A stretch of 64,000 nt of DNA from Heterodontus francisci (Eukaryota). Below are positions 8,370 through 63,548 of this stretch, piece after piece. A model generated the notes under the pieces. The model saw nothing but the letters and a program-made list of their open reading frames with translations. It made no database searches and was not told where the DNA came from. The translations under genes were made by a program, and so were the position numbers. The stretch lies in assembly GCF_036365525.1 (NCBI RefSeq), contig NC_090403.1, forward strand, positions 51,399,095 to 51,463,094. Direction: 5' to 3'. Position 1 is the first letter of the stretch. Every line of letters begins with the position of its first letter.

Positions 8370-11300
8370 TGAAATGTGATAATTCCACATTGCCTTTGAG
8401 AAGGTGGTAGGAACTACTTTCTTGAATCGCTGCAGTCCATGTGGTAAAGGTACACTCACAAGTGCCGTTGTCGTCTCTGGTGCCTGGGTTGATGCTGGGA
8501 GGTCCGTCTGGTTTTATTCTTATTGGACTTTTTCCTGTAGTGGTTTGGATACAACTGATGGCTTGCTAGGTCACTTCAGAGAGCAATTAAGAGTCAACCA
8601 CATTGCTGTGGATCTAGAAACATAAAAACATAGAAAATAGGAGCAGGAGTAGGCCATTTGGACCTTCGAGCCTGCCCCGCCATTCATTATGATCATGGCT
8701 GATCATCCAACTCAGTAGCCTGTTCCGGCTTTCGCCCCATACCCTTTGATCCCTTTAGACCCAAGAGCTATATCTAACTCCTTTTTGAAAACCTACAATG
8801 TTTTGGCCTCAACTGCATTCTGTGGTAGCAAATTCCACAGGTTCACCACTCTCTCAGTGAAGAAATTTCTCCTCATCTCAGTCCTGAAAGGTTTAACCCA
8901 TATCCTTAGACTATGACCCCTGGTTCTGGACACCCCCACCATCAGGAACATCCTTCCTGCATCTATGCTGTCAAGTCCTGTTAGATTTTTATAGGTTCCT
9001 ATGAGATCCCCCCTCACTCTTCTGAACTCCAGCAAATATAATCCTAACCGACTCAATCTCTCCTCATATGTCAGTCCCGCCATCCCAAGAATCAGTCTGG
9101 TAAACCTTTGCTGCACTCCCTCTATAGCAAGAACATCCTTCCTCAGATAAGGGGACCAAAACTGCACACAATATTCCAGGTGTGGCCTCACCAACGCCCT
9201 GTATAATTGCAGCAAGATATCCCTGCTCCTGTACTCGAATCCTCTCGCTATGAAAGCCAACATACCATTTGCCTTTTTTACTGCCTGTTGAACCTGCATG
9301 CTTACCTTCAGCGACTGGTGTACGAGAACACCCAGGTCTTGTTGCATATTCCCCTCTCTCAGTTTATAGCCGTTCAGATAATAATCTGCCTTCCTGTTTT
9401 TGCTATTAAAGTGGATAACCTCACATTTATCCACATTATACTGCATCTGCTATGCATTAGCCCACTCATGCAACTTGTCCAAATCACCCTGAAGCCTCTC
9501 TGCATCCTCCTCACAACTCACCCTCCCACCCAGTTTTGTGTCATCTGCAAATTTGGCGATATTACATTTAGTTCCCTCATCTAAATCATTAATGTATATT
9601 GTGGATAGCTGGAGTCCTAGCACCGATCCCTGCGGTACCCCACTAGTCACTGCCTGCCATTCAGAAAAAGACCCATTTATCCCTACTCTTTGTTTCCTGT
9701 CTGCCAACCAATTTTCTATCCATCGCAATACACTACCCCAATCCTATGCGCTTTAATTTTATACGCTAATCTCTTATGTGGGACTTTGTCGAAAGCTTTC
9801 TGAAAGTCCAAATAAACCACATCCACTGGCTCCCCCTCGTCAACTCTACTAGTTACATCCTCGAAGAATTCTAGTAGATTTGTTAAGCATGATTTCCCTT
9901 TCATAAATCCATGCTGACTGCCCGATTCTACCACTGTTCGCTAAGTGCTCTGCTATAAAATCTTTGATAATGGACTTTAGAATTTTACCCACTACCGATG
10001 TCAGGCTTAATGGTCTATAATTTCCTGCTTTCTCTCTACCTCCCTTTTTAAATAGTGTGGTTACATTAGCTACCCTCCAATCTGTAGGAACTGTTCCAGA
10101 GTCTACAGAATCTTGGAAGATGACCACCAATGCATCTGCTATTTCTAGGGCCGCTTCTTTAAGTACTCTGGGATGCAGACCATCAGGCCCTGGGGATTTA
10201 TCAACCTTCAATCCCATCAATTTCCCCAACACCATTTCTCTACTAATACTGATTTCCTTCAGTTCCTCTCTCTCACTAAGCCATGTGTTCCCTAACATTT
10301 CTGGTATGGTATTTGTGTCCTCCTTTGTGAAGACAGAACCAAAGTATGCATTTAGTTGGTCAGCCATTTCTTTGTTCCCCATAATAAATTCCCCTGTTTC
10401 TGACTGTAAGGGACCTCCATTTGTCTTCACCAATCTTTTTCTCTTCACATACCTATAGAAACTTTTACAGTCAGTTTTTATGTTCCCTGCAAGCTTGCTC
10501 TCGTACTCTATTTTCCCCTTCTTAATCAATCCCTTGGTCCTCCTTTGCTGAATTCTAAACTGCTCCCAATCCTCAGGTTTGTTGTTTTTCCTGGCAAACT
10601 TTTATGCCTCTTTCTTGGATCTAATGCTATCTCTAATTTCCCTTGTAAGCCATGGTTTGGCTACCTTTCCCGTTTTACTTTTGCGCCAAACAGGGATAAA
10701 CAATTGTTGCAGCTCATCCATGCGTTCTTTAAATATTTGCCATTGCCTATCCCTTTAAATAACGTTTCCCAATCCGTCATGGCCAACTCGCGCCTCATAC
10801 CTTCATATTTTCCTTTACTAAGATTCAGGACCCTTGTCTCAGAATCAACTACGTCACTCTCCATCTTGATGAAGAATTCTATCATATTATGGTTGCTCGT
10901 CCCCAAGGGATCTCGCACCACTAGATTGTCAATTATTCCTCTCTCATTACACAATACCCAGTCTAGGATGGCTTGTTCTCTAGTTGGTTCCTCAACGTAT
11001 TGGTCCAGAAAACCATCTCGTATACACTCCAAGAATTTCTCCTCTACGGTATTGTGACTAATTTGATTTGCCTAATCTATATGCAGATTAAAGTCACCCA
11101 TAATTACAGATGTTCCTTTATCGCATGCATCTCTAATTTCCTGTCTAATGCCATTCCCAACATCACCACTAGAGTTTGGGGGTCTATATATAACCCCCGC
11201 TAATGTTTTTTGCCCCTTAGTGTTTCTCAGCTCTACCCATACGGATTCCGCATCGTCAGAGCTAATATCTTTCCTCACTATTACGTTAATTTCCTCTTTA

Positions 11301-12900
11301 ACCAGCAATGCAACTCCACCGCCTTTTGCTTTTTGTCTATCCTTCCTAAATACTGAATATCCCTGGATGTTCATTTCCCTTCCCTGGTCACCTTGCAGCC
11401 ATGTCTCCGTAATCCCGACTAAATCATACCCGTTTACATCTATTTGCGCGATTAATTCATCCACTTTATTGCGAATGCTCCGCGCGTTAAGGCACAAAGC
11501 CATAACATTACTTGTCCCCTTCTCACTATTTTTCACTGTGGCCCTGTTTGATTCTGGCCCTTGATTTCTCTGCCTATCACTTTTCTTATTCCTCTTATTG
11601 TCTTTTGTTCTTGTCTTTGATCCCCCCTCCTCTGACACCTTGCAAAGGTTCCCAACCCCCTGCCATTTTAGTTTAAACCCTCCACAACCACTCTAGCAAA
11701 TACTCCCCCATTACATCAGTCCCAGTCCTGCCCATGTGTAACCCGTCCAGTTTGTACTGGTCCCACCTCCCCCAGAACCAGGCCCAATGCCCCAGGAATC
11801 TAAAACCCTCCCCCTCAACATCTCTTCAGCCACGTATTCATCCGATATATTCTGCTATTTCTCCTCTGACTAGCATGTGGCACTGGTAGTAATCCTGAGA
11901 TCACTACCTTTTGAGGTCCTACTTTTCAACTTACTTCATAGCTCCCTATATTCTACTTTTAGGACCTCATCCTTTTTTTTTAACCTATGTCGTTTGTGCC
12001 AATGTGTACCACAACCACTGGCTGTTCACCCTCCCCCTGAAGAATGTCCTGTAACTGCTCTGAGACATCCTTGACCCTAGCACCAGGGAAGCAACATACC
12101 ATCCTGGAGTCTCATTTGCAGCCACAGAAACGCCTATCTATTCCCCTTACAATTGAATCCCCTGTAACTATTGCATTCCCAAACTTTTTACTCCTTCCCT
12201 GTGCAGCAGAGCCAACCGTGGTGCAATGAATTGGGCTCTTGCTGCTTTCCCCTTGAGAGGCCATTCCCCCCAACAGTATCCAAAGCAGTATACCTGTATT
12301 GCTGGGGATTAGCCACAGGATACTCCTGAACTGCCTGTCTAGTCCTCTTGCTCTGCCTGGTGGTCACCCATTCCCCTCCTGCCTGTGGGGTCTGAACCTG
12401 CGGTGTGACCACCTCTCTATACGTGCTATCCACGATACTATTTGCCTTGTGGATGCTCCACAGTGTCCCCAGCTGCTGGTCCAGCTCCGAAACCCAGGCT
12501 TCCAGGAGCTGCAGCTGGAGACACTTCCTGCACACATGCTGGTCCCGGGCACTGGAAATGTTCCCGGCTTCCGACGTGGAGCACGAGGAGCACACCACAG
12601 CTTTGAGCTCTCCTGCCATGACTTAACCAATTAAATTAAACCTTCTGGAAGTCACATGTAGGCCAGACCAGGTAAGGACAGCAGATTTCCTTCCCTAAAG
12701 GGAAGAGATGGGTTTATAAAACAATCCAGTAGTTTTCTGGTCACCATTACTGTTGCCAGCTTTTTAATTCCAGATTCATTTAATTACTTGAATTTAATTT
12801 CCCTGGTTGCCGTGGTGAGGTTTGAACTCTTATCTCTGGATCATTAGGTCAAGGCCTCTGGATTACTCATACAGTAATATAACCATGATGCTACCGTACC
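8370..12900 (-). mobile_element. tRNA-derived SINE (8370-8619 plus 12644-12900) split by the CR1
   Basis: The two flanks join into the reverse complement of the SINE at 34395-34795 (ccacattgctgtgg..tctggaa gtcacatgtaggccagaccagg). Confidence 0.75.
8620..12643 (-). mobile_element. Near-full-length decayed CR1 LINE (second family)
   Basis: ORF1 remnant from 12619 (CSSC...CRKC); ORF2 split over 11638-8793 with NARS, ITETW, GDFN, DFQKAFD, FADD. TSD-like tctagaa (8613-8619) / tctggaa (12644-12650). Interrupts a SINE. Confidence 0.94.
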
Positions 12901-26738: not shown

Positions 26739-29558
26739 ATATTTGAGTCAGCACTACGCAGGCAGTGAATCTAACCCTTAAATTATAGAAACTTCAAAAA
26801 GAAGTTCCCAGAACACAGTACCTTGGAGTCTATAAGAGTTGGAATCTGTTGCATGTGACTTTGAGGTCCACAAACCTGATGGCACATCAGTCACAGCTCC
26901 CACCAACCAGAAAAGGCCCAGGTTGCATTCCTCTACTATACTGAGTGAACTGACCTCACCTGGCCTCAATGCCCCTGCTCATGGAGAAAGGGCGGTGGAT
27001 TAATCAACATCTTTGTGCTCTCTCTAGTGACCCCCTGCTAGAAGTGCATATGTATAAAGCCAGTATGATTCAGTAACTTCAAGAGGTGATTTCCCGATGG
27101 CTATGTGTAGCGCCATTGTATTCATAGCAGTAAGATTTCCTACGCTTGTTATTTATAGTAAATCATAAAAAACTCTTATTTCTATGGAGCCTTTCATGTT
27201 GTGAAATGTCCCAAGGTAGTTGCTGAAAGCTTTACATAGAGTCTACAGCACAGAAACAGGCCATTTGACTCAACTGGTCCATGCCGGTGTTTATGCTCCA
27301 CATGAGTGTCCTCCCACCCCTCTTCATCTTACTGTGTCAGCATAACTTCTATTCCTTTCTCTCTCATGTGTTTATTGAAATTCCCCTTAAATGCATCTTT
27401 TGCCTCAACTACTCCTTGTGGTAGCCAGTCTCACATTCTAACTATTCTCTGGGTAAAGACTGGTTTACTACCAATGGTGAACTGGCTGCACAGTACCTCC
27501 AAAGTTGGAAGAGCAGAGGGTAACTTTTGAGGACATTTGGAGAAGATTGCAGAGATAGGGTGGACAAAGGCCATGGATGGCCATGAAGTGTTCTTTTATG
27601 ATGTTGCTACATTTAACAACCAGAGAGATCATTCTCACTCTCTCACCTGTGATGAGCAAATTACCATCAGTGGTGGCATGGCAATTTCAGAAATGATTAT
27701 CTTGGGACAAGAAATTTATTTTCGGGAGTAGGTCTTGAGAAACTTGAAATGTTGATTTTTGGCACTTTATTGGGTGCCAGTGTTTTGAACTGAAATTTTT
27801 TTCTTTTATATACTGAAAGACTTGATGTTTATAATACTGCCAGATGTGGAAAAATACACCCTACAGTTAAAACACACAAAACATTTCCCTTCATGACTCA
27901 TGGGGTATGCAAGTCTTCCTTGTCTCTGTGTGGGCAATAAACGTGGCAGAGTGGATGACCAAACCCCTGATACAACCCACCCAATTTTCTTTGTCATTTT
28001 ATTGATTTCAATGCAATCAGGCAGGTTCTATAAAGAGCAATCGATCTGCTTTGCCAGGTCACTGCCCTTGCCGCAGAGTTGAAAATTACCCCCAGCGATT
28101 TTTATCTAATGAAGTAGCTCAACCATACAGACTATGAAGACAAGTCAACTCACCAGCCTGTCACCACCAGAAGCCAATCATCTGTAATCAGCAACCAGCC
28201 ACTGGAAACATAAGACCATAGGAATAGGAGCTGGCCCTTGAGCCTGACCAGTCATTCAGATTAGATCAGGCTCATCTGTATGTTAACTTCAACCCACCTT
28301 GCTCAATAAATATCTATCAAACTTAGTTTTGAAATTTTCAATTGACCTAGCCTGAACAGCCCAGTATTAATTTTAAGGTTAATCTGATCTGCACCTCCTC
28401 CAAGGCCAATATATCCTTCCTCAGGTGAGGTGCCCAGAACTGAACACAGCCCTCTAAATGGGGTCTAACTCCAGGTTTATGGAATCGGAACATAACTTCC
28501 ATCCCTTTGTATTCCAGCCCCAGTGAGATAAAGCCAACACTCCATTAGCGTTTGAAAATGTATTTGTATCTTTCCACTAGCTATTACTGATTTCTGTACT
28601 TGGGCTCCTAATTATCTCTGCAGCTTTACAGTACCTAGCTTTGCATCATTTAGAAAATACTCTGATTTATCTTCCTGAGAAAACTGCTCATCCATCATTA
28701 CCAGGCATCAGAAGGCAGCAGCCACTAGAGACGAGACAGCAATGTCTGCCCACTGCAATCAGCAGTCAGCCACCCACAGTCAAGAAGTGAAAATAAAATG
28801 CTGATCAATCTCTGCCGCTGATGTTCAGCATCTGGCACGTGCTCAAGGTTGAGCTCCTCGTCTCGCTGTCACAAAAGTGTGCAAAAGCACAAAAATGCGG
28901 AAGTATCACAGGTGACATTTCAAAATACCTCAGAAGTTATTTATGAATGTATTAACTGGTGATTTCTCGGCTCCTGGAAAGCAGTGAGGGATGGCAGTGC
29001 TGGAGAATGGAACGGTTTTCCCAATCCTGCAACGGTCAGGTGCAGAAGAAAGGTCTGTTGTTGTCAGCCTAGATTTTGTGCTCATGTCTCTGGAGTGGCA
29101 CTTGAATCCACACCCTTCTCACTCAGAGGTGAGAATGCTACCCGCTGAGCCACAACTGACACCTATAATATAATATAGCTGGGCAACACAGACGAGAAAG
29201 GATTGTAGCTCAGTGGCTGGCCTCTGCCGAGTTAGCTGATTTCAGCCAGACTGGCCAGTCAGAGCTTATAAATGACCTTGAGATGCTGGATTAGTAGTAA
29301 TGGAATTGACCAGAATTGTCACTCCTGATCACCATCCCTGCCTGAAGTGTATGTCTGTGGAAGTTGGAGAAGACCGATTTTGTCTGTAATGCCCTCCTGT
29401 GGATTAATAGCTGCTGATGCTGTCAGTCAGGGCTCACACATAAAAAATGACCATTTGGGAGCCAAGACAAATAGATGGTAATCTGTTCCTCCAACCATGA
29501 CACAATGGGGTAGATTTTCACTTTCACCACCTGGGTGATAAGAACATAAGAAGTAGGA

Positions 29559-30058
29559 GAGGGTGCAGAGGAGGTTCACTAGGTTGATTCCGGAGTTGAG
29601 GGGGTTGGCTTATGAGGAGAGACTGAGTAGATTGGGATTATATTCATTGGAGTTCAGAAGAATGAGGGGGGATCTTATAGAAACATATAAAATCATGAAG
29701 GGAATAGATAAGGTACAAGTAGAGAGGATGTTTCCACTGGCAGGTGAAGCTAGGACAAGAGGGCATTGCTTCAAGATTAGAGAGAGCAGATTTAGGACTG
29801 AATTGAGAAGCAACTTCTTCACCCAGAGGGTTGTTAATCTATGGAATTCCTTGCCCAGTGAAGTAGTTGACGCTTCTTCAGTAAACGTCTTTAAAGCTAA
29901 GGTAGATATCTTTTTGAACAATAAAGGAATTGAGGGATACGGTGGGAGCGCGGGTAAGTGGATCTGAGTCCACGAAAAGATCAGCCATGATCTTATTGAA
30001 TGGCGGAGCAGGCTCGAGGGGCCGGACGGCCTACTCCTGCTCCTGGTACTTATGATCT
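29559..30058 (+). mobile_element. Young 5'-truncated CR1 inserted in the tail of an opposite-strand CR1
   Basis: Open 134-aa ORF2 C-terminus; 5-bp TSD tagga at 29554-29558 and 30059-30063; the host continues to about 30465. Confidence 0.9.
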
Positions 30059-41945: not shown

Positions 41946-44867
41946 TTGATCCCAAAAGATTTGTCTTTAGTGGCCACATAGATGTGTTTGTGGAATGTTT
42001 TCTGGGGTTAAAGATGCTATATAAACACAAGTTGTTGTTCCCATATGTAAAGTTTAAATGAATACTCCCATTAATGTGAGTACAGCTTAAGCTGCAAATT
42101 GTAACCAATGTTGGGAGTTATTTTTTCAATGAGGCATTAGCCCAAAAAACCCCTTTCCAAATCTACATGTCTGAAAAATTCAAAACAAAACAAATTAGTG
42201 AATAAGAATATAAGTTTGGATAGAGCTTAGGTGCTTGGATTTGGTGAGCTGTATTGTAAGTTTTTTTTTTAGGGGATGCTTTATATCCCACTTCAAGCTG
42301 TCTGGATACCTTTGCTTCTACAGATACACTTTTCCAAATAGCAGGCAGCACAGTACTGTTCTGAACTCATGTTGAAAATTGGATTTCCAACATTTAAAAA
42401 AATTCAGATTTTCCAGTTACAAAATGCACAGCTGCTAAAATTTACACCGGAGTTTTATAAGAGGCCTGAAGTGCCAATGGATTTGTATTTTTACATTGTG
42501 CCCAATTCTGTATCAAAGCAATGCGTTTCAGATGGTTTATAACAATACAGAAGGGGTAGAACCTAATTAAACTTTAATACTATACACTATTGCAATCTTT
42601 TTTAAAAAGAAAATTCTGAGTTCTATGTTACTTGAAACATATCAGGACTACCCATTCCAATGCTCTATTCATGCAGTCATCTGTGCCCAGATTTTTAAAA
42701 AAAAATAATTGGGACATATAGCAAATGTTATATCTCACAGATGGGGTACATTTACTGATGCATTAAGGAGAGAACAGATGGCTGGGAGCAAGTTTCACAT
42801 CTAACACACCAGAGGGCTTTGGATGACCTCCATAAACTACGAGAGTAAAGTTCAAGCAGTTTATAAACTTTAGCCAAATCGTTTGTGCTATAATCCGGAG
42901 AACACTCATAACCAAACAAAGAAGCTTCTGCACCTTCACACTTCAAGCTTATGTCTCTATTGCTACTGCCAAATCTCCATCATGACCAGTGACCACAGTC
43001 ATTATGGCTATTACATGGAGCTGTGTGGCTTCATATGGTGCTATTTTTTTCTTTCATTCAGCTGGCAGGAAAGAGTGCTCTACTTTTCAGGAAAATTTTG
43101 TTTGGTGTTAGAATAAAACTGATGTAGAGAACAGGTGTGATCACAAGATACATAATCATCCTCTGAAGCTAGAAATTATATCACTGTTTTCTAATGACTC
43201 ACTTAAATCTTGAAATTTATATCTATACACAATGACCCAGATTTCGCTATCAAAATTACAGTGAGGCTAATGGGGTGCTCGCTGTTATTTATCTGCAAAT
43301 GGTACAGCAACTTCAGGCAAGGGGCAGATGCGCAGTTTAATGCAGATATCCAAAAATAGCATCTCACTATCTGCCTTACCATTAAAAGGCATGAAGTTTC
43401 TGTATTTGCACAGTAGATATGAACTAAACTTGCCACAGAAAGTTAAGTCAAGGAATTTGAAGTCTAAGTGCCCTATTAACATTTTAATGACATCATGAGT
43501 GTTATTTACTGCTAATTAATCTTTCTTGCACTGAAAATTAACAATTACAAGTTTGGAGTCTCATTCCTTCAGATTTTAATTTAGAAATTTAAAAAATGTG
43601 ACAATTTTAAAAATAAATTTACTTTGTCCCTTTTTCTCTCTATCCAATCTTTCTTTCCTCCACTTTATTTCTCTTTCTGTTACCTGATTTGACATTGAAT
43701 TCACCCACTCTAATTCAGTTACAAAAATAAAGGGGGTAAATCAGTATACCCTTCATTACATGTTGCAAAAATGGGTCATATTCTTGGTTCCAAACAAATA
43801 CATAATGGGTATGTAATCCAATGTACCCCGCACAACACTCCTGGTGATGCAGCCTCAGTTACTATGACCCTGCACTCTGGAACTCCCTTCCTGAAGTTTG
43901 GGAGTTTGACTATTTCATTGTGGAAGGATCTTGATAATTTATATTAAAACATTGCTGTGATGGAGCCAGATTCAATTGTAGCTTTCAGAAACTAATTGGA
44001 TAATTACCTGAAGAGAAAAAAATTGCGGATCAAGCAGGGGAGTGGGACCAGGTGAGTTGCTCTTGCAGAGAGCCAGAATAGGCCTGACGGGTCAAATAGC
44101 CGCCTCCTGTGCTGTAACAATTCTATGATTCTCTGATTAAGTTAACTTGAAGTTCATAAGGAGCTGAATTCTTAGAGTAGCCAATACTGGGGGATATGCA
44201 TTAAAACCAGAGGAGCCAGTTTATGGAATGACGCTTCTCACATACCAATTCCGCTTGAGCCAAAAGGAAGTTGTTTACACCTTCCTGTGGACCATCCAAA
44301 CTCACTGGCCTCAATATTAATGGAGAAGGTGCTGGGGTGACCAAAATCAGCTGGAGCACGGACCCTAGTAAGGCCAGGGACACGGAGGCCTTGCTGATCT
44401 GAATGAAAGGGCCACATTAGCATATTTTAGGGACATCTCCCACCAGGCAGCTGCCCAAATTGGGCATCTAGAGATCAGGGGCTGAGGAAGGTAGAAGGTT
44501 GCCTTGGAGTGGCCTGAATTACAGCAGTTCTGTGAGAGACCTCCTGTTCCCCCTGGCCCAGAAGGAGTGCTAAAAAGAGCCACTTGCCTTGGGAAGCCAG
44601 CAGCTCCTGCCTCTGATCAGCTGCTGGGAATCCGACAGCTCAGGCCTCCTCCTTACTTACTGATAATTTCATCAGCGCCTCAGCTTAAATTTATCAGGCT
44701 GTGTCTTTGGTATGTTAATTAGGCACCCGCCTGCCTTTTGAGAGAGCCTCTTTCCCTTCTCGATTTCTGGATGCGGTCAGTTGTCCGGTCCGGTCCAATA
44801 CTTTAATTACCAACCCCCCCACACAGACCCTCTCCCTTGTTAAATTGAAGCCATTACATTAGAATGG

Positions 44868-45288
44868 ATTAGGCAGGATCCCCAAAGACACATTGTACAG
44901 CGAGCTCGCCACTGGTATCAGACCCACCGGCCGTCCATGTCTCCGTTATAAAGACGTCTGCAAACGCGACATGAAATCGTGTGACATTGATCACAAGTCG
45001 TGGGAGTCAGTTGCCAGCATTCGCCAGAGCTGGCGGGCAGCCATAAAGACAGGGCTAAATTGTGGCGAGTCGAAGAGACTTAGTAGTTGGCAGGAAAAAA
45101 GACAGAGGCGCAAGGGGAGAGCCAACTGTGCAACAGCCCCAACAAACAAATTTCTCTGCAGCACCTGTGGAAGAGCCTGTCACTCCAGAATTGGCCTTTA
45201 TAGCCACTCCAGGCGCTGCTTCACAAACCACTGACCACCTCCAGGCGCATATCCATTGTCTCTCGAGATAAGGAGGCCCAAAAGAAGA
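44868..45288 (+). mobile_element. 5'-truncated RTE-clade LINE
   Basis: LYSEL..G.RPTGRP.LRYKDVCKRDMK and terminal CSTCGRACHSRIGLYSH finger, typical of RTE ORFs; 12-bp TSD acattagaatgg (44856-44867, 45289-45300); aagaag tail. Confidence 0.9.
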
Positions 45289-45668
45289 ACATTAGAATGG
45301 CTCTATTCGTTTCAGGCCAGCAGAAGACAATTTCCAGAGTCTCCCTCCTGGGGAGGTGCGAGCTAGTTTTATTGACTGGCCAGACCTGAGCCATGGAAAC
45401 CTGGGAAAGGGTCAGAGGTCCAACTGCTGGTCTCCTGTCCAGCTAGAATACAAAGGAAATGTGAGCACATGGCATTTTTTGTGAAGATTCGTTGAGAGGG
45501 ACAGACAGGGAGAAAGTGCGACATCTTTCAGATAAAGATGGTCAGGATCAGGAGAAATAGAACATAGAACATAGAACATAGAAAAATACAGCACAGAACA
45601 GGCCCTTCGGCCCACGATGTTGTGCCGATCCTTTGTCCTCTGTCAAGGACAATTTAATCTATACCCCA

Positions 45669-48569
45669 TCATTCTCCTTTATCCATATACCTATCCAAAA
45701 GCCTTTTGAAAGTCCCTAAAGTTTCTGACTCAACAACTTCCCCGGGCAAGGCATTCCATGCCTCGACCACTCTCTGGGTAAAGAACCTTCCCCTGACATC
45801 CCCCTTATATCTCCCACCCTTCACCTTAAATTTATGACCCCTTGTAACGCTTTGCTCCACCCGGGGAAAAAGTTTCTGACTGTCTACCCTATCTATTCCC
45901 CTGATCATCTTATAAACCTCTATCATGTCACCCCTCATCCTTCTCCTTTCTAATGAGAAGAGGCCTAGAATGTTCAGCCTTTCCTCGTAAGACTTATTCT
46001 CCATTCCAGGCAACATCCTGGTAAATCTCCTCTGCACCCTCTCCAAGGCTTCCACATCCTTCCTAAAATGAGGCGACCAGAACTGCACACAGTACTCCAA
46101 ATGAGGCCTTACCAAGGTCCTGTACAGCTGCATCATCACCTCACGGCTCTTAAATTCAATCCCTCTGCTAATGAACGCTAACACCCCATATGCCTTCTTC
46201 ACAGCCCTATCCACTTGAGTTGCAACTTTCAATGATCTATGCACATAGACCCCAAGGTCTCTCTGCTCCTCCACATGCCCAAGAACCCTACCGTTAACCC
46301 AGTATTTTGCATTCATGTTTGTCCTTCCAAAATGGACGACCTCACACTTTTCAGGGTTAAACTCCATCTGCCACTTTTCAGCCCAGCACTGCAACCTATC
46401 CAAGTCCCTTTGCAGACGACAATAGCCCTCCTCGGTATCCACAACTCCACCAACCTTTGTATCATCTGCAAATTTACTGACCCACCCTTCGACTTCCTCA
46501 TCCAAGTCGTTAATAAAAATCACAAACAGGAGAGGACCCAGAACTGATCCCTGCGGCACGCCACTGGTAACTGGGCTCCAGGCTGAGTATTTACCATCTA
46601 AGACCACTCTCTGCCTTCTATCAGTTAGCCAATTCTTAATCCAATTGGCCACATTCCCCACTATCCCATGCCTCCTGACTTTCTCCATAAGTCTACCATG
46701 GGGGACCTTATCAAATGCCTTACTAAAATCCATGTACACCACATCCACTGGTTTACCCTCATCCACTTGCTTGGTCACCTGCTCAAAGAATTCAATCAGG
46801 CTTGTGAGGCAAGACCTACCCCTCACAAAACCGTGCTGACTGTCCCGAATCAAGCAGTGTCTTTCCAGATGCTCAGAAATCCTATCCCTCAGCACCTTTT
46901 CCATCAACTTGCCTACCACTGAAGTAAGACTAACTGGCCTGTAATTCCCAGGGTTGTTCCTATTCCCTTTCTTGAACAGGGGCACAACATTTGCCACCCT
47001 CCAATCACCTGGTACCACCCCCGTCAGCAGAGAAGATGAAAAGATCATTGCCAGCGGCTCTGCAATTTCATCCCTTGCTTCCCATAACATCCTTGGATAT
47101 ACCCCGTCAGGCCCGGGAGACTTGTCTATCTTCAAGTTATTCAAAAACCCCAACACATCTTCCCTCCTAACGAGCACTTCCTCGAGCTTACCAGTCTGCT
47201 TCCCACCGTCCTCTTCAGTAATACACCCCTTCTCATTCGTAAATACCGAAGAGAAGTACTCATTCAAAACCTCACTTATCTCTTCCGGCTCAACACACAG
47301 TCTCCCGCTATTGTCCTTGACCGGACCTACGGTCCCCCTAGTCATCCTCATATTTCTGACATACGCGTAAAAGGCCTTGGGGTTTTCTTTTATCCTACCC
47401 GCCAAGCATTTTTCATGCCCTCTCTTAGCTCTCCTAATCCCTTTCTTCAGATCCTTCCTGGCCATCTTGTATCCCTCCAGAGCTATGCCTGTGCCCTTTT
47501 TCCTCAACTTTATATACGCATCCTTCTTCTTCCTAACAAGACTCTCAACCTCTCTTGTCAACCACGGTTCCCTCACATGACCATCCCTTCCCTGTCTGAC
47601 AGGGACATGCTTATCAATGGCCCCTACTATCTGCTCCTTGAAAAAGTTCCACATTTCGACCGTGCCCTTCCCTGCCAGCATATGCTCCCAACTTATGCTC
47701 CTCAGTTCCTGCCTGACAGCATCATATCTACCCTTCCCCCAATTGTAAACCTTGCCCTGTTGCACATACCTATCCCTCTCCATTACCACAGTGAATGCTA
47801 CAGAATTGTGATCACTATCTCCAAAGTGCTCGCCCACCAACAGCTCTATCACTTGCCCTGGTTCATTACCTAGTACCAAATCCAATATTGCCTCCCCTCT
47901 GGTCGGGCAGTCTACATACTGAGTCAGAAAAGCTTCCTGGACATACTGCACAAGCACTACCCCATCCAAACTATTCGATCTAAAGAGTTGCCAATCAATA
48001 TTTGGGAAGTTGAAATCCCCCATAATTACTACCCTGTGACTTCTGCTCCTTTCCAAAATCTGTTTCCCAATCTGCTCTTCCACCTCCCTGCTGCTATTGG
48101 GGGGCCTATAGAAAACTCCCATCAAGGTGACTGCTCCTTTCCTGTTCCTGACCTCAACCCACAGTGCCTCAGTCGGCAGATCCTCCTCGAAAATTCTTTC
48201 AGCAGTTGTTACACTATTTCTAACTAACAATGCCACCCCCCCACCTCTTTTACCACCATTCCTAATCTTATGAAAACATCTATAACCAGGTACCTCCAAA
48301 AACCATTCCTCCCCCTCACCTATCCACGTTTCAGTGATGGCCACAACATCGTAGTCCCAAGTGCCCATCCACGCCTTCAATTCACTCACCTTATTCCTGA
48401 TGCTTCTTGCGTTGAAGTATACGCACTTTAACCCTTCTCCGTGCCCATCTGTCCTCTGTGACAGTGCTACCTTCCCCAATACCTCACTACACTCTTTGTC
48501 TTTCTGAGTGGACCCACTGGTCCCTGGATTACAAGTCCGGTTCCCATCCCCCTCCCAAACTAGTTTAAA
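45669..48569 (-). CDS. CR1 ORF2p: APE endonuclease + reverse transcriptase
   Basis: NARS, ITETW, GDFN, LDLVL, SDH (APE); DFSKAFD, GVPQGSVLGP, FADD (RT). The track start at 48479 is TTG; the frame stays open upstream to at least 48569, overlapping the ORF1 stop. Confidence 0.95.
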   Translation of the reverse strand, partial: FKLVWEGDGNRTCNPGTSGSTQKDKECSEVLGKVALSQRTDGHGEGLKCVYFNARSIRNKVSELKAWMGTWDYDVVAITETWIGEGEEWFLEVPGYRCFHKIRNGGKRGGGVALLVRNSVTTAERIFEEDLPTEALWVEVRNRKGAVTLMGVFYRPPNSSREVEEQIGKQILERSRSHRVVIMGDFNFPNIDWQLFRSNSLDGVVLVQYVQEAFLTQYVDCPTRGEAILDLVLGNEPGQVIELLVGEHFGDSDHNSVAFTVVMERDRYVQQGKVYNWGKGRYDAVRQELRSISWEHMLAGKGTVEMWNFFKEQIVGAIDKHVPVRQGRDGHVREPWLTREVESLVRKKKDAYIKLRKKGTGIALEGYKMARKDLKKGIRRAKRGHEKCLAGRIKENPKAFYAYVRNMRMTRGTVGPVKDNSGRLCVEPEEISEVLNEYFSSVFTNEKGCITEEDGGKQTGKLEEVLVRREDVLGFLNNLKIDKSPGPDGVYPRMLWEARDEIAEPLAMIFSSSLLTGVVPGDWRVANVVPLFKKGNRNNPGNYRPVSLTSVVGKLMEKVLRDRISEHLERHCLIRDSQHGFVRGRSCLTSLIEFFEQVTKQVDEGKPVDVVYMDFSKAFDKVPHGRLMEKVRRHGIVGNVANWIKNWLTDRRQRVVLDGKYSAWSPVTSGVPQGSVLGPLLFVIFINDLDEEVEGWVSKFADDTKVGGVVDTEEGYCRLQRDLDRLQCWAEKWQMEFNPEKCEVVHFGRTNMNAKYWVNGRVLGHVEEQRDLGVYVHRSLKVATQVDRAVKKAYGVLAFISRGIEFKSREVMMQLYRTLVRPHLEYCVQFWSPHFRKDVEALERVQRRFTRMLPGMENKSYEERLNILGLFSLERRRMRGDMIEVYKMIRGIDRVDSQKLFPRVEQSVTRGHKFKVKGGRYKGDVRGRFFTQRVVEAWNALPGEVVESETLGTFKRLLDRYMDKGE

Positions 48570-49480
48570 CCCTCCCGAACAGTACTAGCAAACCTCCCTC
48601 CCAGGATATTGGTGCCCCTCTGGTTCAGATGCAGCCCGTCCTGTTTGAACAGGTCCCATCTTCCCCAGAATGCAGTCCAATTATCCAAGAACTGGAAGCC
48701 CTCCCTCCTACACCATTCCTGCAGCCACGTGTTCAGCTGTGCTCTCTCCCTATTCCTAGCCTCACTATCACGTGGCGCCGGCAACAAACCAGAGATAACA
48801 ACTCTGTCCGTCCGAGCTTTCAGCTTCCAGCCTAACTCCCTAAACTCACTTCTAACATCTGTGCCACCCTTCCTTCCTACGTCGTTGGTGCCAATGTGCA
48901 CCACGACCTCTGGCTGCTCCCCCTCCCCTTTAAGGATCCTGAAGACGCGATCACAAACATCACGGACCCTGGCACCAGGGAGGCAACAAACCATCCGTGC
49001 GTGTCGCCTGCGCCCACAGAACCGCCTGTCCGTACTCCTCACCATCGAGTCCCCGATGACTAGTGCTCTCCCATTCTCCCTCCTTCCCTTCTGAGCCACA
49101 GTGCAGGACCCCGTGCCAGAGGCCCGGTCACTGCAGCCTGCCCCCGATAGGCCGTCCCCCCCAACAGTATCTAAAACTGTATACTTGTTGTTGAGGGGAA
49201 CGACCACAGGAGATCCCTGCACTGACCTCTTCCCACCTCTAACTGTTACCCAGCTGCCTTTGATTTGTGGAGTAACGACCTCCGTGTAGCTTCTATCTAT
49301 CAACCCCTCAGCTTCCCGAATGATCCTCAGTTCATCCAGCTCCAGCTCCAATTCCCTAACACGGTCTGATAGGAGCTGGAGACGGATGCACTTCCAGCAG
49401 GTGAAGTCGGCAGGGCCACCGGAGGTTTCCCTCACCTCGAACATTCTGCAGGAGGAGCAAGACACTACACTGGCTGCCAT
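48560..49480 (-). CDS. CR1 ORF1p: CxxC..CxxC zinc finger, coiled coil, SGNH esterase
   Basis: CSSC...CWKC, heptad Leu run LQLLSDRVRELELELDEL, SGNH blocks VIGDSMVR, LPGAR, HIGTND, DGLH; 306 aa. Confidence 0.95.
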   Translation of the reverse strand: MAASVVSCSSCRMFEVRETSGGPADFTCWKCIRLQLLSDRVRELELELDELRIIREAEGLIDRSYTEVVTPQIKGSWVTVRGGKRSVQGSPVVVPLNNKYTVLDTVGGDGLSGAGCSDRASGTGSCTVAQKGRRENGRALVIGDSMVRSTDRRFCGRRRHARMVCCLPGARVRDVCDRVFRILKGEGEQPEVVVHIGTNDVGRKGGTDVRSEFRELGWKLKARTDRVVISGLLPAPRDSEARNRERAQLNTWLQEWCRREGFQFLDNWTAFWGRWDLFKQDGLHLNQRGTNILGGRFASTVREGLN

Positions 49481-49657: not shown

Positions 49658-50512
49658 AGCTCCGCACCTTTAAGGAAAATACCCACCCAGGAGTCCTCGC
49701 TGCCGACCAGCTTCCGGTTCCTCCGGCGCCAAAAGAAACTCAAAGACAAGGAAAACAGTAAGTAAAACAGTAAGTACTTACTTATAAAACACAGCTCCTG
49801 ATGCCTTCACTCACCCACCGAAGAGTCGCTACCTTCTCCTGCTGCTCCGCCGGGAAATGAGGCCGAGTCCACGGAGCTCCGCACCTTTAAGGAAAATACC
49901 CACCCAGGAGTCCTCGCTGCCGACCAGCTTCCGGTTCCTCCGGCGCCAAAAGAAACTCAAAGACAAGGAAAACAGTAAGTAAAACAGTAAGTACTTACTT
50001 ATAAAACACAGCTCCTGATGCCTTCACTCACCCACCGAAGAGTCGCTACCTTCTCCTGCTGCTCCGCCGGGAAATGAGGCCGAGTCCACGGAGCTCCGCA
50101 CCTTTAAGGAAAATACCCACCCAGGAGTCCTCGCTGCCGACCAGCTTCCGGTTCCTCCGGCGCCAAAAGAAACTCAAAGACAAGGAAAACAGTAAGTAAA
50201 ACAGTAAGTACTTACTTATAAAACACAGCTCCTGATGCCTTCACTCACCCACCGAAGAGTCGCTACCTTCTCCTGCTGCTCCGCCGGGAAATGAGGCCGA
50301 GTCCACGGAGCTCCGCACCTTTAAGGAAAATACCCACCCAGGAGTCCTCGCTGCCGACCAGCTTCCGGTTCCTCCGGCGCCAAAAGAAACTCAAAGACAA
50401 GGAAAACAGTAAGTAAAACAGTAAGTACTTACTTATAAAACACAGCTCCTGATGCCTTCACTCACCCACCGAAGAGTCGCTACCTTCTCCTGCTGCTCCG
50501 CCGGGAAATGAG
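49658..50512 (-). repeat. Tandem 217-bp monomer array (about 3.9 copies) forming the CR1 5' UTR
   Basis: agctccgcacctttaagg recurs at 49658, 49875, 50092 and 50309 (period 217); no differences seen between units. Confidence 0.97.
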
Positions 50513-52429: not shown

Positions 52430-54097
52430 TTTTTTTTTATTCATTCAGGGGATGTGGGTGTCACTGGCTAGGCCAGCATTTATTGCCCATCCGTAAATGC
52501 CCTTGAGAAGGTGGTGGTGAGCTGCCTTCTTGAACCACTGCAGTCCATGTGGGGTAGATATATCCACAGTGCTGTTAGGAAGGGAGTTCCAGGATTTTGA
52601 CCCAGCGACAGTGAAGGAATGGCGACATAGTTCCAAGTCAGGATGGTGTGTAGCTTGGAGGGCACCTTGCAGGTGGTGATGTTCCCAGGCATCTGCTTGT
52701 CCTTCTAGGTGGCAGAGGTTGTGGGTTTGGAAAGTGCTGTCTAAGGAGCCTTGGTGTGTTGCGGCAGTGCATCTTGTAGATGGTACACACTGCTGCCACT
52801 GTGCATCGGTGGTGAAGGGAGTGAATGTTGAAGGTGGTGGATGGGGTGCCAATCAAGTGGGCTGCTTTGTCCTGAATGGTATCAAGCTTCTCGAGTGTTG
52901 TTGGAGCTGCACCCATCCGGGCAAGTGGAGAGTATTCCATCATACTCCTGACTTGTGCCTTGTTGATGGTGGATAGGCTTTGGGGAGTCAGGAGGTGAGT
53001 TACTCGCCACAGGATTCCTAGCCTCTGACCTGCTCTTTTAGCCACAATATTTATATGGCTACTCCAGTTCAGTTTCTGCTCAATGATAACCCCCAGGATG
53101 TTGATAGTGGGGAATTTAGCGATCATAATGACATTGACAAGGGGAGATGGTTAGATTCTCTCTTGTGGGAGATGGTCATTGCCTGGCACTTGTGTGGCGC
53201 GAATGTTACTTGCCACTTATCAGCCCAAGCCTGGATATTGTCCAGGTCTTGCTGCATTTCTACACGGACTGCTTCAGTATATGAGGAGCCGCGAATGGTG
53301 CTGAACATTGGGCAATCATTAGCGAACACCCCCACTTCTGACCTTATGATTGGAGGAAGATCATTGATGGAGCAGCTGAAGATGGTTGGGCCTAGGACAC
53401 AACCATCTTCCTTTGCCCTAGGTACGACTCTACCCAGCGGAAAGTTCTCCCCCGATTCCCATTGACTTCAGTTTTGCTAGGGCTACTTGATACCATCTCA
53501 GTCAAATGCTGCCTCGATGTCAAGGGCAGTCACATTCACCCCACCTCATGAGTTCAGCTCTTTTGTCCATGTTTGAACCAAGACTGTAATGAGGTCGGGA
53601 GCAGAGTGGCCCTGACGGAGCCCAAACTGAGCATCACTGAGCAGGTTATTGCTAAGCAAGTGCTGCTTGATAGCACTGTCAATGACACCTTCCATCACTT
53701 TACTGATTGAGAGTAGACTGAAGGGTTGGTAATTGGCCAGGTTGGATTTGACCTTTTTATGTACAGGACATACTTGGGCAAATTTCCACATTGCCAAGTA
53801 GATGCCAGTGTTGTAGCTGTACTGGAAGAGCTTGGCTAGGGGTGCAGCAAATTCTGGAGCACAGGTCTTCAGTACCATTGCCGGAATATTGTCAGGGCCC
53901 ATAGCTTTTGCAGTATCCAGTGCCTTCAGTTGTTTCTTGATATCACATGGAGTGAATCGAATTGGCTGAAGGCATCTGTGATGCTGGGGACCTCGGGGAG
54001 GCTGAGATGGATCATCCATTTGATACTTTTGGCTGAAGATTGTTGCAAATGCTTCAGCCTTATCTTTTGCACTGATCTGCTGGGCTCCCCCATCAAT
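52430..54097 (-). mobile_element. Decayed CR1/L2-group LINE (RT region to 3' end)
   Basis: KAMGPDNIP..LKTCAPE, NYQPFSLLS, QFGLRQGHS, VFAND, QDLDNIQAWADKWQV; (tgaa)n plus A tail. Confidence 0.88.
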
Positions 54098-54486
54098 GTC
54101 CTGTGAATAGTCACAGTCTGGTCTCTCACACAAAGAACAACCAATTATGGGGAGTGTCAGAGGGCTGTTGGGATCCATGGAAGCAAATCCCAGAATGAAG
54201 GCAGCATCTTCAAGGGAAGGCAATAAATTGGCATTTAACTCTTGTTCGTTGAATAAATCTCAATGTTGGCTTAGACTAACTTTGCTGTACTATTCATAGA
54301 AGGAATAAAATGAAAGCTGTCATTCCAGTTATTGTCATTAATGCACTACCAGCATGAACAGGCCAGGATTGCACTGCTGCTTTTGGTGTCACTGGAGTGG
54401 GATCAATACTTGGGAGTAAAACAGTAGGACTCAGTAAACTCCTAATCCAGAGTAGTGAAATCAATTTGCCTGCTCATTTGTGGCTG

Positions 54487-54871: not shown

Positions 54872-55509
54872 ATGTTTCCTCTAAGTTGAACTATGCACGG
54901 CTGGGCAGCAATATGGAATGTAACACGCAGGGGACAATCAGGTTGTGCTTCCTTTAAGATGTGTGCATGCACGATATGCAGCGTAACAAATAGGCTGTGC
55001 AAAGCAAAGAGAAATTAGAGAGAACATTGTTGACAACAGTGTAGAGACCAGACGTTCAAGGAAACGGGCACAGGAATTAATGCCTCAAAAAACGAGGAGA
55101 AGTGGATGCTAGAAATATGATAATTGGGCATTAATTTATATAAACCAAAAAAAAGTTAAAACTATGTCAATGATATTGCGCATGCTCAATGCCCACGGCT
55201 TGACTCTGGTCGAGTTAAATAAAATTTTGCAACATTGTCACGCACTTGTAATTATTTTTTTTTCCTCGGATTAAAAACAATGTGTGTGTATTAAGACATT
55301 GTTAAAAACAGTGCACCCTTAACGGAGAGAAAATTCTGGAATTTCTGAGAGTGTGCAGCAGCTGCATTTTGTGACTCTGGGCAACAGCAGGAGAGAGAGG
55401 TCACATGGTGCAATGTGTCCACTTGGCTGTGTGTGGAACTGGCAGAAACCGGTTGAAACCAGTTAGTTCTGAGAGACTTTCCAACGAGGTGCAATGAAGA
55501 AAAGGAGCT

Positions 55510-58500
55510 ATTTTATTCTCTCTCAGCAAAAATCTGCACATCGACTGGGTAAACTTAATGAGCACTAATGCTGTGGAAGATGAGTTTCTGGAGTGTGTTA
55601 GGGATGGTTTTCTAGAGCAGTATGTTGAGGAACCAACTAGAGAACAGCCTATTTTAGATCTAGTATTATGTAATGAGAAACGGCTAATTAATAGTCTTGT
55701 TGTAAAAGAACCTTTAGGGATGAGTGACCATAATCTGATAGAATTTAACATTATGTTTGAAAGTGAGGTAGTTCAATCTGAAGCCAGGGTGTTAAATTTG
55801 AACAAAGGAAATTATGAAGGTACGAGGGGTAAATTAGCTGAGGTGGATTGGAAAAATACATTAAAAGGTATGACAGTACATAGGCAATGGATAGTCTTTA
55901 AAGAAATATTACATAGTTTACAGGACCTGTACATTGCTTCAAGGCACAAAAACCCCAAAAGTAAAGGCAGTCAACCGTGGATAACAAAGAAAATTAAGGA
56001 TTGTATTAGACTAAAAGGAAAGGCCTATAAAGCTGCCAGAAATAGTAGTAAACTTGAGGATTGGGAGGATTTTAGAATACAGCAAAGGAGGATGAAGAAA
56101 CTGATAAAGGGAAAATAGAATATGAATGCAAGCTAGCAAAAATATAAACGAGGACTGTAAAGGCTTCTACAGATATGTGAAAAGGAAGCGTTTGGCTAAG
56201 ACAAATGTAGGTCCATTACAGGCAGAGTCAGGAGAATTTATTATGGGGAATAGAGAAATGGCAGAGAAGCTAAATGATTACTTTGTGTCTGTCTTCACTG
56301 AGGAAGATACAAGAAATCTCCCAGAATTAGAGATCCAAGGGATTAGGGGGAATGAGGAATTGAAGGAAATTAGTATTAGTAAGAAGGTTGTACTGGAGAA
56401 ATTAATGGGGTTGAAGGTTGATAAGTCCCCAGGTCTTGATATTCGACATCCCAGAGTGTTGAAAGAGGTAGCTATGAAGCTATTGGATGCATTGGTGATC
56501 ATCTTCCAAAATTCTATATATTCTGGAGCGGTTCCTGCAGATTGGAATGTCACAAATATCACCCCATTATTTAAGAAGGGAGCGAGCGAGAAAACAGGGA
56601 ATTACAGACCTGTTAGCCTTACATCAGTCATTGGGAAAATGCTAGAATCTATTCTAAAGGATGTGATAAATGGACACTTGGATAATAATGTTCTGATTGG
56701 GCATAGTCAATATGGATTTATGAATGGGAAATCAGGTTTGACAAACCTGTTACTAACAGAATTGATAAAGGGGAGTCGGTGAATGTGGTATACTTGGATT
56801 TTCAGAAGGCTTTTGATGAAGTCCTCCACAGGAGGTTGGTTAGCAAAATTAAAGCACATGAGATAGGAGGTAATATACTGGCATGGATTAAGGATTGGTT
56901 AATGGGCAGAAAGTAGGAATAAACGGGTCATTCTTGCATTGGCAGGCTGTGACTAGTGGGGTTTGCAGGGATCAGTGCTTTGGCCCCAACTGTTCACAAG
57001 ATATATCAATTATTTGGATGTGGGGATGAAATGTAGTATTTCCAAGTTTGCAGATGACACAAAACTAGGTGGGAATGTCTGTTGTGAGGAAGATGCAAAG
57101 TGGCTTCAAGGGGATTTGGACAGACTTAGTGAGTGGGCAAGAATGTGGCAGATGGAATATAATGTGGAAAAATGTGAGGTTATCCACTCTGGTAGGATGT
57201 GCAGAGTATTTCTTAAATGTGAGAGATTAGAAAGTGTAGATGTACAAAGGGACCTGGGTGTCCTTGTCGATAAGTTACTGAAAGCTAACATGCAGGTGCA
57301 GCAAGCAATTAGGAAGGCTAATGGTATGTTGGCCTTTATTGCAAGAGGATTTGAGTACAGGAGTAGTGTAGTCTTGCTTCATTTGTATAGAACCTTGGTT
57401 AGATCGCACTTGGAGTACTGTGTGCAGTTTTGGTCTCCTTACCTTAGGGAGGATATTAATTGAACATACGGAGCAGGAGCAGGCCACCCGACCCTTCTAG
57501 CCCGCCCCGTTACCCAACAAACTCATGGCTGAACCGATTATTCTGCATTTCCACCTACCCCTGACAACCCCCCCCCCACCTCCCTGCTTACCAAGCATCT
57601 ATCTACCTCTGCCTTAAAAATATTCAAAGACTCTGCTTCCACCGCCTTTTGAGGAACAGAATTGCAAAGACTCACAACCCTCTGAGAGAAAAGATTTCTC
57701 CTCATCTCTGTCTTAAATGAGCAACCCCTTATTTTTAAACAGTGACCCCTAGTTCTAGATTCTCCCACAAAGGGAAACATCCTTTCCACATCCACTCTGT
57801 CAAGACCCCTTAGGATTTTATATGTTTCAATCAAGTCGCCTCTTACTCTTCTAAATTTCAGCAGATACAAGCCTAGCCTGTCCGATCTTTGCTCGTAAGA
57901 CAGCCCGCCCATTCCAGGTATTAGTCTACTAAACCTTCTCTGTACTGCCTTCAATGCATTCACATCCTTCCTTAAATAAGGAGATCAGTATTGTACACAG
58001 TACTCCAGATGTAGTTTCATCAATGCCCTGTATAGCTGAAGCATAACCTCCTTACTTTTGTATTCAATTCCCCTCACGATAAACGATAACATTCTATTAG
58101 CTTTCCTAATTACTTGCTGTACCTGCATACTAACCTTTTGTGATTCATGCACTAGGACACTCAGATCCCTCTGCATCTCAGAGCTCTGCAATATCTCATC
58201 ATTTAGATAATCTTTTTTTATTCTTCCTGCCAAAGTGGACAATTTCATACTTTCCCAGATTATACTCCATTTCCCAGGTCTTTGCCTATTCACTTAACCT
58301 ATCTGTTTCCTTTTGTAGCCTCATGTCCTCTTCACAAATTACTTTCCTACCTATCTTTGTGTCATTAGCAAATTTAGCAACCATACCTTCGGTCCCTTCA
58401 TCTAGGTCATTTATATAAATTGTAAAAAGTTGAAGCCCCAGCACAGATCCCTGTGGCACACCACACATTACATTTTTCCATAGAGGGAGTACAACGAAGG

Positions 58501-62369: not shown

Positions 62370-63548
62370 ATTTCCAGAAGACATTTGATAAGGTGCCACA
62401 TCAAAGCTTATTGCGGAAAGTAAAGGCTCAGGGTGTAGGGGGTAACACTTTGGCATGGATAGAAGATTGGCTAGCTAACAGAGTGTAGGCATAAATGGGT
62501 CATTTCTGATTGGCAAGATGTAATGAGTGGTGTGCCACAGGGATCAGTACTGGGGCCTCAACTTTTTACAATTTATATCAATGACTCGGATAAAGGGACC
62601 GAAGGTATAGTTGCTAAAGATGCTGATGATACAAAGATAGGTAGGAAAGTATGTTGTGAAGAGGACATAAGGAGGCTACAAAGGGATACAGATAGGTTAA
62701 GTGAGTGGGCAAAGATCTGGCAAATAGAGTATAAAGTGGGAAAATGTGAAATTGTCCATTTTGGCAGGAAGAATAAAAAAGAATAGTATCTAAATGGTGA
62801 GAGATTGCAGTGCTCTGAGATGCAGAGGGATCTGGGTGTCCTAGTGTTTGAATCGCAAAAGGTTAATATGCAGGTTCAGCAAGTAATTAGGAAAGCTAAT
62901 AGAATGTTATCATTTATTGCGAGGGGAATTGAATACAAAAGTAGGGAAGTTATGCTTCAGCTACACAGGGCATTGATGAGACCACATCTGGAGTATTGTG
63001 TACAGTATTGGTCTCCTTATTTAAGGAAGGATGTAAATGTGTTGGAAGTAGTTCAGAGAAGGTTTACTAGACTAATACCTGGAACGGACAGGCTGTCTTA
63101 CGAGGGAAGTTTGGACAGGCTAGGCTTGTATCCGCTGGAGTTTAGAAGAGTAAGAAGCGACTTGATTGAAATATCTAAGATTCTGAAGGGTCTTGACAGG
63201 GTGGATGTGGAAAGGATGTTCCCTCTTGTGGGAGAATCCGGAACTAGGGGTCACTGTTTAAAAATAAGGGGTCACCCATTAAAGACAGGGATGAGGAGAA
63301 ATTTTTTCTCTGAGGGTCGTGAGTCTTTGGAACTCTCTTCCTCAAAAGGCGATGGAAGCAGAGTCTTTGAATATTTTTAAGGCAGCTGTTGATAGATCCT
63401 TGATAAGCAATGGGGTGAAAGGTTATCGGGGGTAGATGGAAATGTGGAGTTGAGGTTACAATCTGATCAGCCATGATCTTATTGAATGGCGGAGCAGGCT
63501 CGAGGGGCCGAGCAGCCTACTCCTGCTCCTAATTTGTATGTTCATATG
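62370..63548 (+). mobile_element. CR1 3' fragment (RT to tail)
   Basis: DFQKTFDKVPH, GVPQGSVLGP, ADDTK, HLEYCVQYWSP, tail. Confidence 0.92.

Follow-up and report, generated by a model that had tools for sequence, protein, structure and literature searches.

We analyse here a window of 64,000 nucleotides (nt) from Heterodontus francisci (contig NC_090403.1, positions 51,399,095 to 51,463,094), whose minus strand carries a full-length long interspersed nuclear element (LINE) of CR1 type, with 5′ monomers, two open reading frames (ORF1 and ORF2) and a 3′ repeat tail. The last two codons of ORF1 and the wobble base that precedes them spell the slippery heptamer U_UUA_AAC, which is followed at once by the TAG stop codon, and ORF2 lies in the −1 frame. 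We will argue from sequence comparison that the element probably makes its endonuclease and reverse transcriptase (RT) by programmed −1 ribosomal frameshifting at this heptamer, with an ORF1-linker-ORF2 fusion of 1270 amino acids (aa) as the predicted product.

The CR1 label is based on the layout of the element and on the kinship of its ORF1 with turtle, snake and hummingbird proteins, the tree used here being one of ORF1; the closest named relatives of ORF1 are shark proteins. The ORF1 product contains an SGNH/GDSL esterase at aa 142-289 (PF13472, E 2.5e-14), with an N-terminal Cys motif and a coiled-coil-like stretch, as judged by eye. ORF2 matches an endonuclease (PF03372, E 6e-20) and an RT (PF00078, E 7e-37). 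The family is young: in the 6.0-Gb genome of the animal itself (G000), 150 of 150 scored matches show 100% identity across the C-terminal 80 aa of ORF1. Coordinates of all features are collected in Table 1.

Results

For the comparison, a set of 88 ORF1 homologous proteins was used together with DNA from three sources, namely five families of G000, five junctions from 400 kb chosen regardless of sequence, and 56 metagenome loci. A single copy of each family was taken, and with the five chance junctions and the full set of 56 loci this gave 66 stretches, which were anchored with ORF1 minus its last 8 residues. Of these, 37 reached past the end of ORF1, and one that was weak and unalignable (L114) was dropped, leaving 36 junctions. 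The ORF1 tree contains 24 of the 36 junction rows and 16 proteins, with 12 broken rows left out.

At the protein level, 66 of the 88 homologs have Leu-Asn-stop as their terminus, and the residue ahead of the Leu varies; the named ones come from sharks, rays, frogs, turtles, a snake and a hummingbird. Judged by their ends, most of the remaining 22 seem to be partial or mis-modelled. It had been set out beforehand to ask whether the nucleotides TTTAAAC are conserved, rather than only the G-L-N residues, and this is what is found. The exact heptamer is present in 30 of the 36 junctions. The terminal Leu codon is TTA in 35/35 cases, against a background of 12%, and the terminal Asn codon is AAC in 33/35, against 44%. 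The codon before the Leu encodes nine different amino acids, and yet its third base is T in 34/36 junctions, where 11.5 would be expected. By comparison, the third positions of the ten codons upstream of the heptamer are only 33% shared, and the last Leu of the DGLHL motif, which is equally conserved and served as a control, is spread over five codons in 22 cases. The stop codon follows directly after the heptamer in 30/36 junctions (TAG in 24, TAA in 4 and TGA in 2).

The junctions fall into three separate groups of the ORF1 tree (shark; turtle, snake and bird; and a distant unnamed one), with repeated changes of the codon preceding the Leu. Within the five local families, 30/30, 25/25, 25/25, 16/20 and 20/20 copies carry the exact heptamer, which makes 116/120. 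The older, broken CR1 of another family in the window has the identical 10-mer followed by TAA, as the sequence-only reading of this DNA had stated. That reading had also placed two overlapping heptamers on the codon phase of ORF1, U_UUA_AAC along with G_GGU_UUA. Both exist, at the coordinates given for them, and only the former is conserved; the latter needs GGT as the preceding codon, present in 6/36 junctions, and is rejected as a slip site.

Contigs of public sequencing runs from three organisms, whose status as RNA is guessed, pile up on positions 48536-48600. In one run (X1), the summed depth is 26,834 on this segment compared with 538, and loose contig ends are seen on both sides, which indicates that many divergent copies match only there. 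Judged from these alignments, 48536-48600 is an island of nucleotide conservation. No variant letter at a frequency of at least 3% is listed inside the heptamer in 88, 173 and 10 aligned contigs, in a table that omits differences near contig ends. A search of viral contigs for relatives gave none (0/31 stretches).

We now turn our attention to the −1 frame. In 28/36 junctions it contains a stop codon within 12 codons upstream of the heptamer, and it can therefore hardly be entered earlier. Downstream, endonuclease motif I was located in 24 junctions; in 18 of them the frame stays open all the way from the heptamer to this motif, the other six having frame shifts, stops or an insertion. Of the copies of the five local families, 106/120 are open. 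In the window it is free of stops from 48584 to 45669, so that it does run into ORF2 as had been proposed. The linkers between heptamer and motif I are hydrophilic, 38-90 aa long and have a median identity of 24%, and once shuffled they would be stop-free with a chance of 0.007-0.39 each. Since the linker stays open in spite of its divergence, and since the frame is closed upstream, the linker appears to be translated, with entry at or just after the heptamer.

The first in-frame ATG of ORF2 comes too late to start a complete enzyme. The NARS motif lies at aa 53 (48413), ahead of the first Met, which is aa 68 (48368), in the order given by the sequence-only reading; the Pfam endonuclease match starts at aa 51. 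In an alignment with the human L1 endonuclease, ORF2 aa 59 corresponds to residue 22 and the first Met to approximately residue 31. A Met-started ORF2 protein (ORF2p) would thus lack some 30 domain residues, among them the conserved Asn of motif I, which has a catalytic role. No Met precedes motif I in 29/29, 17/19 and 17/19 open copies of three families; the 29 copies are those of the window's own family, for which an AUG-less −1 frame had been claimed, and none of them (0/29) has an AUG overlapping or adjoining the ORF1 stop in the manner of SART1. The ATG located 12 nt after the ORF1 stop was considered as a start of ORF2 and discarded, as it is in the frame of ORF1 and its reading ends after a short stretch.

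Downstream of the heptamer, the conserved element is a run of G that begins after a spacer of exactly 10 nt. A G is found at +11 and +12 in 34/35 junctions, at +13 in 33/35 and at +14 in 32/34. Wobble bases of the −1 frame are fixed by the run: GGG is the codon for Gly in 30/31 cases, compared with a background of 30%. Of the G-rich downstream region noted earlier, the conserved part is this single run. A general four-tract G-quadruplex is not supported: a quadruplex is predicted in 9/34 junctions, four G3 tracts within 45 nt occur in 2/34, and only one run is present in the distant group.

Other candidates for a stimulator were also rejected. The hairpin that had been pointed out downstream is real, but it starts only at +40, which is too distant, and it is not shared. 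A C-rich tract of the 5′ untranslated region (UTR), at 49620-49607 on the minus strand, can form 14 base pairs with the G-rich segment 48556-48543 (also minus), with an energy of −29.3 kcal/mol; this match is not repeated in other lineages and failed the control. A cluster of matches 550-800 nt upstream shows no preference for the cognate sequence (30 junctions, permutation p 0.18). Apart from this, four bird-like elements (L079, L082, L085 and L093) have a short hairpin at approximately +25 to +50, beyond the G-run, with a z-score that is not significant.

The heptamer U_UUA_AAC is reported to be among the most shift-prone ones in mammalian ribosomes, and while spacers of 5-9 nt are typical of structures, a minority of stimulators, some of them linear, act over 11-15 nt and are tied to trans-acting factors (PMC5009743). 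On the comparison made here, the geometry of the G-run fits this longer-spacer class. The run may be bound by a protein, and it may represent a new kind of frameshift stimulator.

Table 1. Features of the CR1 element and of a second junction in the window (aa, amino acids; ORF2 residues are counted from the slip site).
Feature	Position	Strand	Remarks
5′ UTR tandem monomers	49658..50512	−	217 nt x 3.9, 100% identical
ORF1, 306 aa	48560..49480	−	ATG 49480; end GAG GGT TTA AAC TAG
Overlapping G_GGU_UUA heptamer	48566..48572	−	also in ORF1 phase; not conserved, probably incidental
Slippery heptamer U_UUA_AAC	48563..48569	−	ORF1 phase; predicted −1 shift site
ORF1 stop TAG	48560..48562	−	adjoins the heptamer
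G-run, +11..+15 after the heptamer	48548..48552	−	10-nt spacer; candidate linear stimulator
GGACC/GGTCC hairpin	48510..48523	−	39 nt downstream of the heptamer; not seen in other lineages
−1 frame linker, slip site to endonuclease motif I	48414..48563	−	no AUG; hydrophilic
ORF2, −1 frame, 966 aa	45669..48569	−	APE endonuclease aa 51-254, RT aa 535-765
3′ tail	45553..45583	−	7-nt unit x 4.6, no poly(A)
Same junction in a second CR1 (older, broken, different family)	11668..11680	−	heptamer 11677-11671, TAA, G-run 11660-11656

A few further observations concern the element and its surroundings. The four perfect 217-nt monomers of the 5′ UTR resemble the monomer promoters of mouse L1. Other broken CR1-like copies, of different families, lie at 8793-12622, 29557-29967, 55498-57984 and 62787-63380 of the window, and pieces of other RT-bearing LINE types were recognized by eye from the translations at 52445-54259 and 44863-45234. 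As to database labels, two of the ORF1 homologs may be mentioned (P0001 and P0017): one, 94% identical to the ORF1 of the window, carries the name of a Pseudomonas aeruginosa hydrolase, probably through contamination, and the other that of a 40S ribosomal protein S24 isoform.

Discussion

Taken at the level of sequence, the signal is real and deeply conserved, and the comparison supports the fusion of more than 1200 aa that had been proposed for the production of ORF2. A number of results weigh against frameshifting, however. Among 34 junctions no conserved hairpin, pseudoknot or shared helix was found (fold z-scores between −2.3 and +1.8, one of the 34 below −2; pseudoknots were not modelled directly), the usual stimulator at a spacing of 5-9 nt is missing, and the long-range pairing described above failed its control. 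A weak search for longer relatives with ORF1 and ORF2 fused in frame found none among 572 candidates. The 36 junctions are kin, so the counts are not those of independent events, and the five families were collected with queries that contained the terminal residues, which means that only the synonymous choice is informative in those copies. The exact heptamer is absent in 6/36 junctions; five of these look decayed, while the remaining one (L071:686) is distant, open over 494 codons, and has G_UUA_AAC and a shifted G-run. In addition, for two of the five families the linker contains an in-frame AUG in all open copies (18/18 and 21/21). Concerning the distant forms, one protein (P0086) ends in Q-G-N, and together with L071 it may mark the edge of the range of the signal.

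The AUG codons speak for a different mechanism, in which ribosomes terminate at the ORF1 stop and reinitiate in the −1 frame at a nearby AUG or non-AUG codon, the conserved letters then being the reinitiation signal. This is the route used by SART1, at a UAAUG, and by mammalian L1 (PMC2881922, PMC3894237). In one of the families with linker AUGs, UAAUG lies over the ORF1 stop in 19/21 open copies, in another the AUG follows 12-16 codons further on, 6/36 junctions have an AUG at +6, and the linker of the window's element contains five near-cognate codons. On the other hand, in 7 of the 18 open junctions the linker up to motif I is free of AUG and in the rest the AUG positions are scattered, the codons adjoining the stop are mostly not near-cognate (CTA in 26/36), and reinitiation gives no reason for the T that is fixed across nine amino acids at the wobble position 7 nt upstream of the stop. 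We therefore consider reinitiation improbable as the general explanation, while in the UAAUG family it possibly operates alongside the shift. The copies in question (L152-L176, a G000 family, and also L103) have kept the heptamer in addition to the SART1-like UAAUG over the stop, and may use both frameshifting and reinitiation.

Two other options were considered. The island could be a different RNA or DNA signal, such as a splice site, a site of protein binding or packaging, or an internal promoter, with ORF2 being made from a spliced or subgenomic RNA. The island is indeed conserved as nucleotides, heptamer and TAG together end in YAG, and G-runs are splicing enhancers. However, the AG at the stop is absent in 9/36 junctions, including whole TAA families, the upstream sequence is purine-rich without a pyrimidine tract, and none of the aligned contigs, again of guessed RNA status, has a joint across the junction; the four joints that were seen are all inside ORF1 and lack GT-AG ends. 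This makes such a signal very unlikely. The last option is a dual-coding constraint only, where the ORF1 protein (ORF1p) needs L-N-stop and an ORF2p started upstream needs F-K-L, and it is true that both frames are conserved as protein over the heptamer codons. Yet the −1 frame is closed by the upstream stops already described, and a Met occurs in that 12-codon stretch in only 3/36 junctions, so that F-K-L is not usually readable unless a shift takes place; moreover, in the G-run wobble bases are fixed even though just one frame is coding there. We regard this explanation as largely refuted already, with hardly any chance left to it.

For frameshifting, the following sequence of events can be envisaged. 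Most ribosomes would terminate at the ORF1 stop and thereby yield the larger amount of ORF1p. A minority would pause with UUA and AAC in the P and A sites, re-pair on UUU and AAA, and continue in the −1 frame. The pause would likely be caused by the adjoining stop codon and the G-run, with the latter serving as a linear signal rather than a pseudoknot, either through a bound protein or through contact with the mRNA entry channel. The search for domains revealed no protease, and the fusion would hence stay whole. Like Gag-Pol with Gag, it could co-assemble with ORF1p multimers, using the coiled coil; dimerization has been demonstrated for the ORF1p of ZfL2-1 (PMC3905857).

The arrangement shares the X_XXY_YYZ class of heptamer with retroviral gag-pol and coronavirus ORF1a/1b, the coronaviruses using the same seven letters, and likewise fuses a structural ORF to an enzyme ORF that is required in smaller amount. 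It differs in that CR1 is an element without long terminal repeats (non-LTR) in which neither a protease domain nor a conserved structure at 5-9 nt was found, and in that it has a stop right after the heptamer and a linear G-run at +11. In the arteriviruses, where nsp1beta/PCBP and a C-rich motif are involved, and in the cardioviruses, a short motif also stands at a fixed longer spacer, 11-14 nt (PMC5009743) compared with 10 nt in CR1, but the CR1 motif is G-rich rather than C-rich and stimulation by a protein is only proposed for it.

Among non-LTR elements of APE type, a −1 frameshift is stated in a review to be required for ORF2 of Dictyostelium TRE5-A and TRE3-A (PMC5911963). The sources of that review are, by their titles, element descriptions of 1992 and 1998, and the ORF1 and the host are unrelated to those of CR1. 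SART1 and mammalian L1 also have a bicistronic LINE RNA with ORF2 dependent on the translation of ORF1 (PMC2881922, PMC3894237), but they yield a separate ORF2p, unlike the element of the window, which has no AUG near the stop. Chicken CR1 and zebrafish ZfL2-1 have the same layout, with a coiled coil and an SGNH esterase in ORF1 and APE and RT in ORF2 (PMC3905857); the word frameshift appears nowhere in the available text of that paper. Our full-text literature search found no report of a CR1 slippery site, while the primary CR1 descriptions and the Repbase reports, which may remark on the overlap, were outside its reach. The way in which LINEs translate ORF2 is in general an open question, to which only L1 and SART1 have provided answers to date (PMC3894237, PMC2881922).

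If the frameshifting mechanism is correct, the real CR1 enzyme would be a 140-kDa fusion; for chicken CR1, an ORF2p of about 95 kDa is reported, in passages that do not go into the manner of its translation (PMC2734521). Gene models that start at the first Met would omit the first endonuclease motif, and what is called an intact CR1 would need a new definition. Among the repeats of birds, crocodilians, turtles and snakes, CR1 is the most abundant one (PMC4316615). A more far-reaching proposal, which we put forward tentatively and think somewhat unlikely, is that, in CR1 LINEs of sharks, birds and the lineages between and beyond them, ORF2 is produced solely as an ORF1-ORF2 fusion, with the shift driven by a structure-free G-run at +11 that is bound by a protein, either ORF1p itself or a host G-run binder. 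Were this the case, it would be an instance in cellular genomes of trans-activated frameshifting, which would set and regulate the ratio of ORF1p to RT in a dominant vertebrate transposon.

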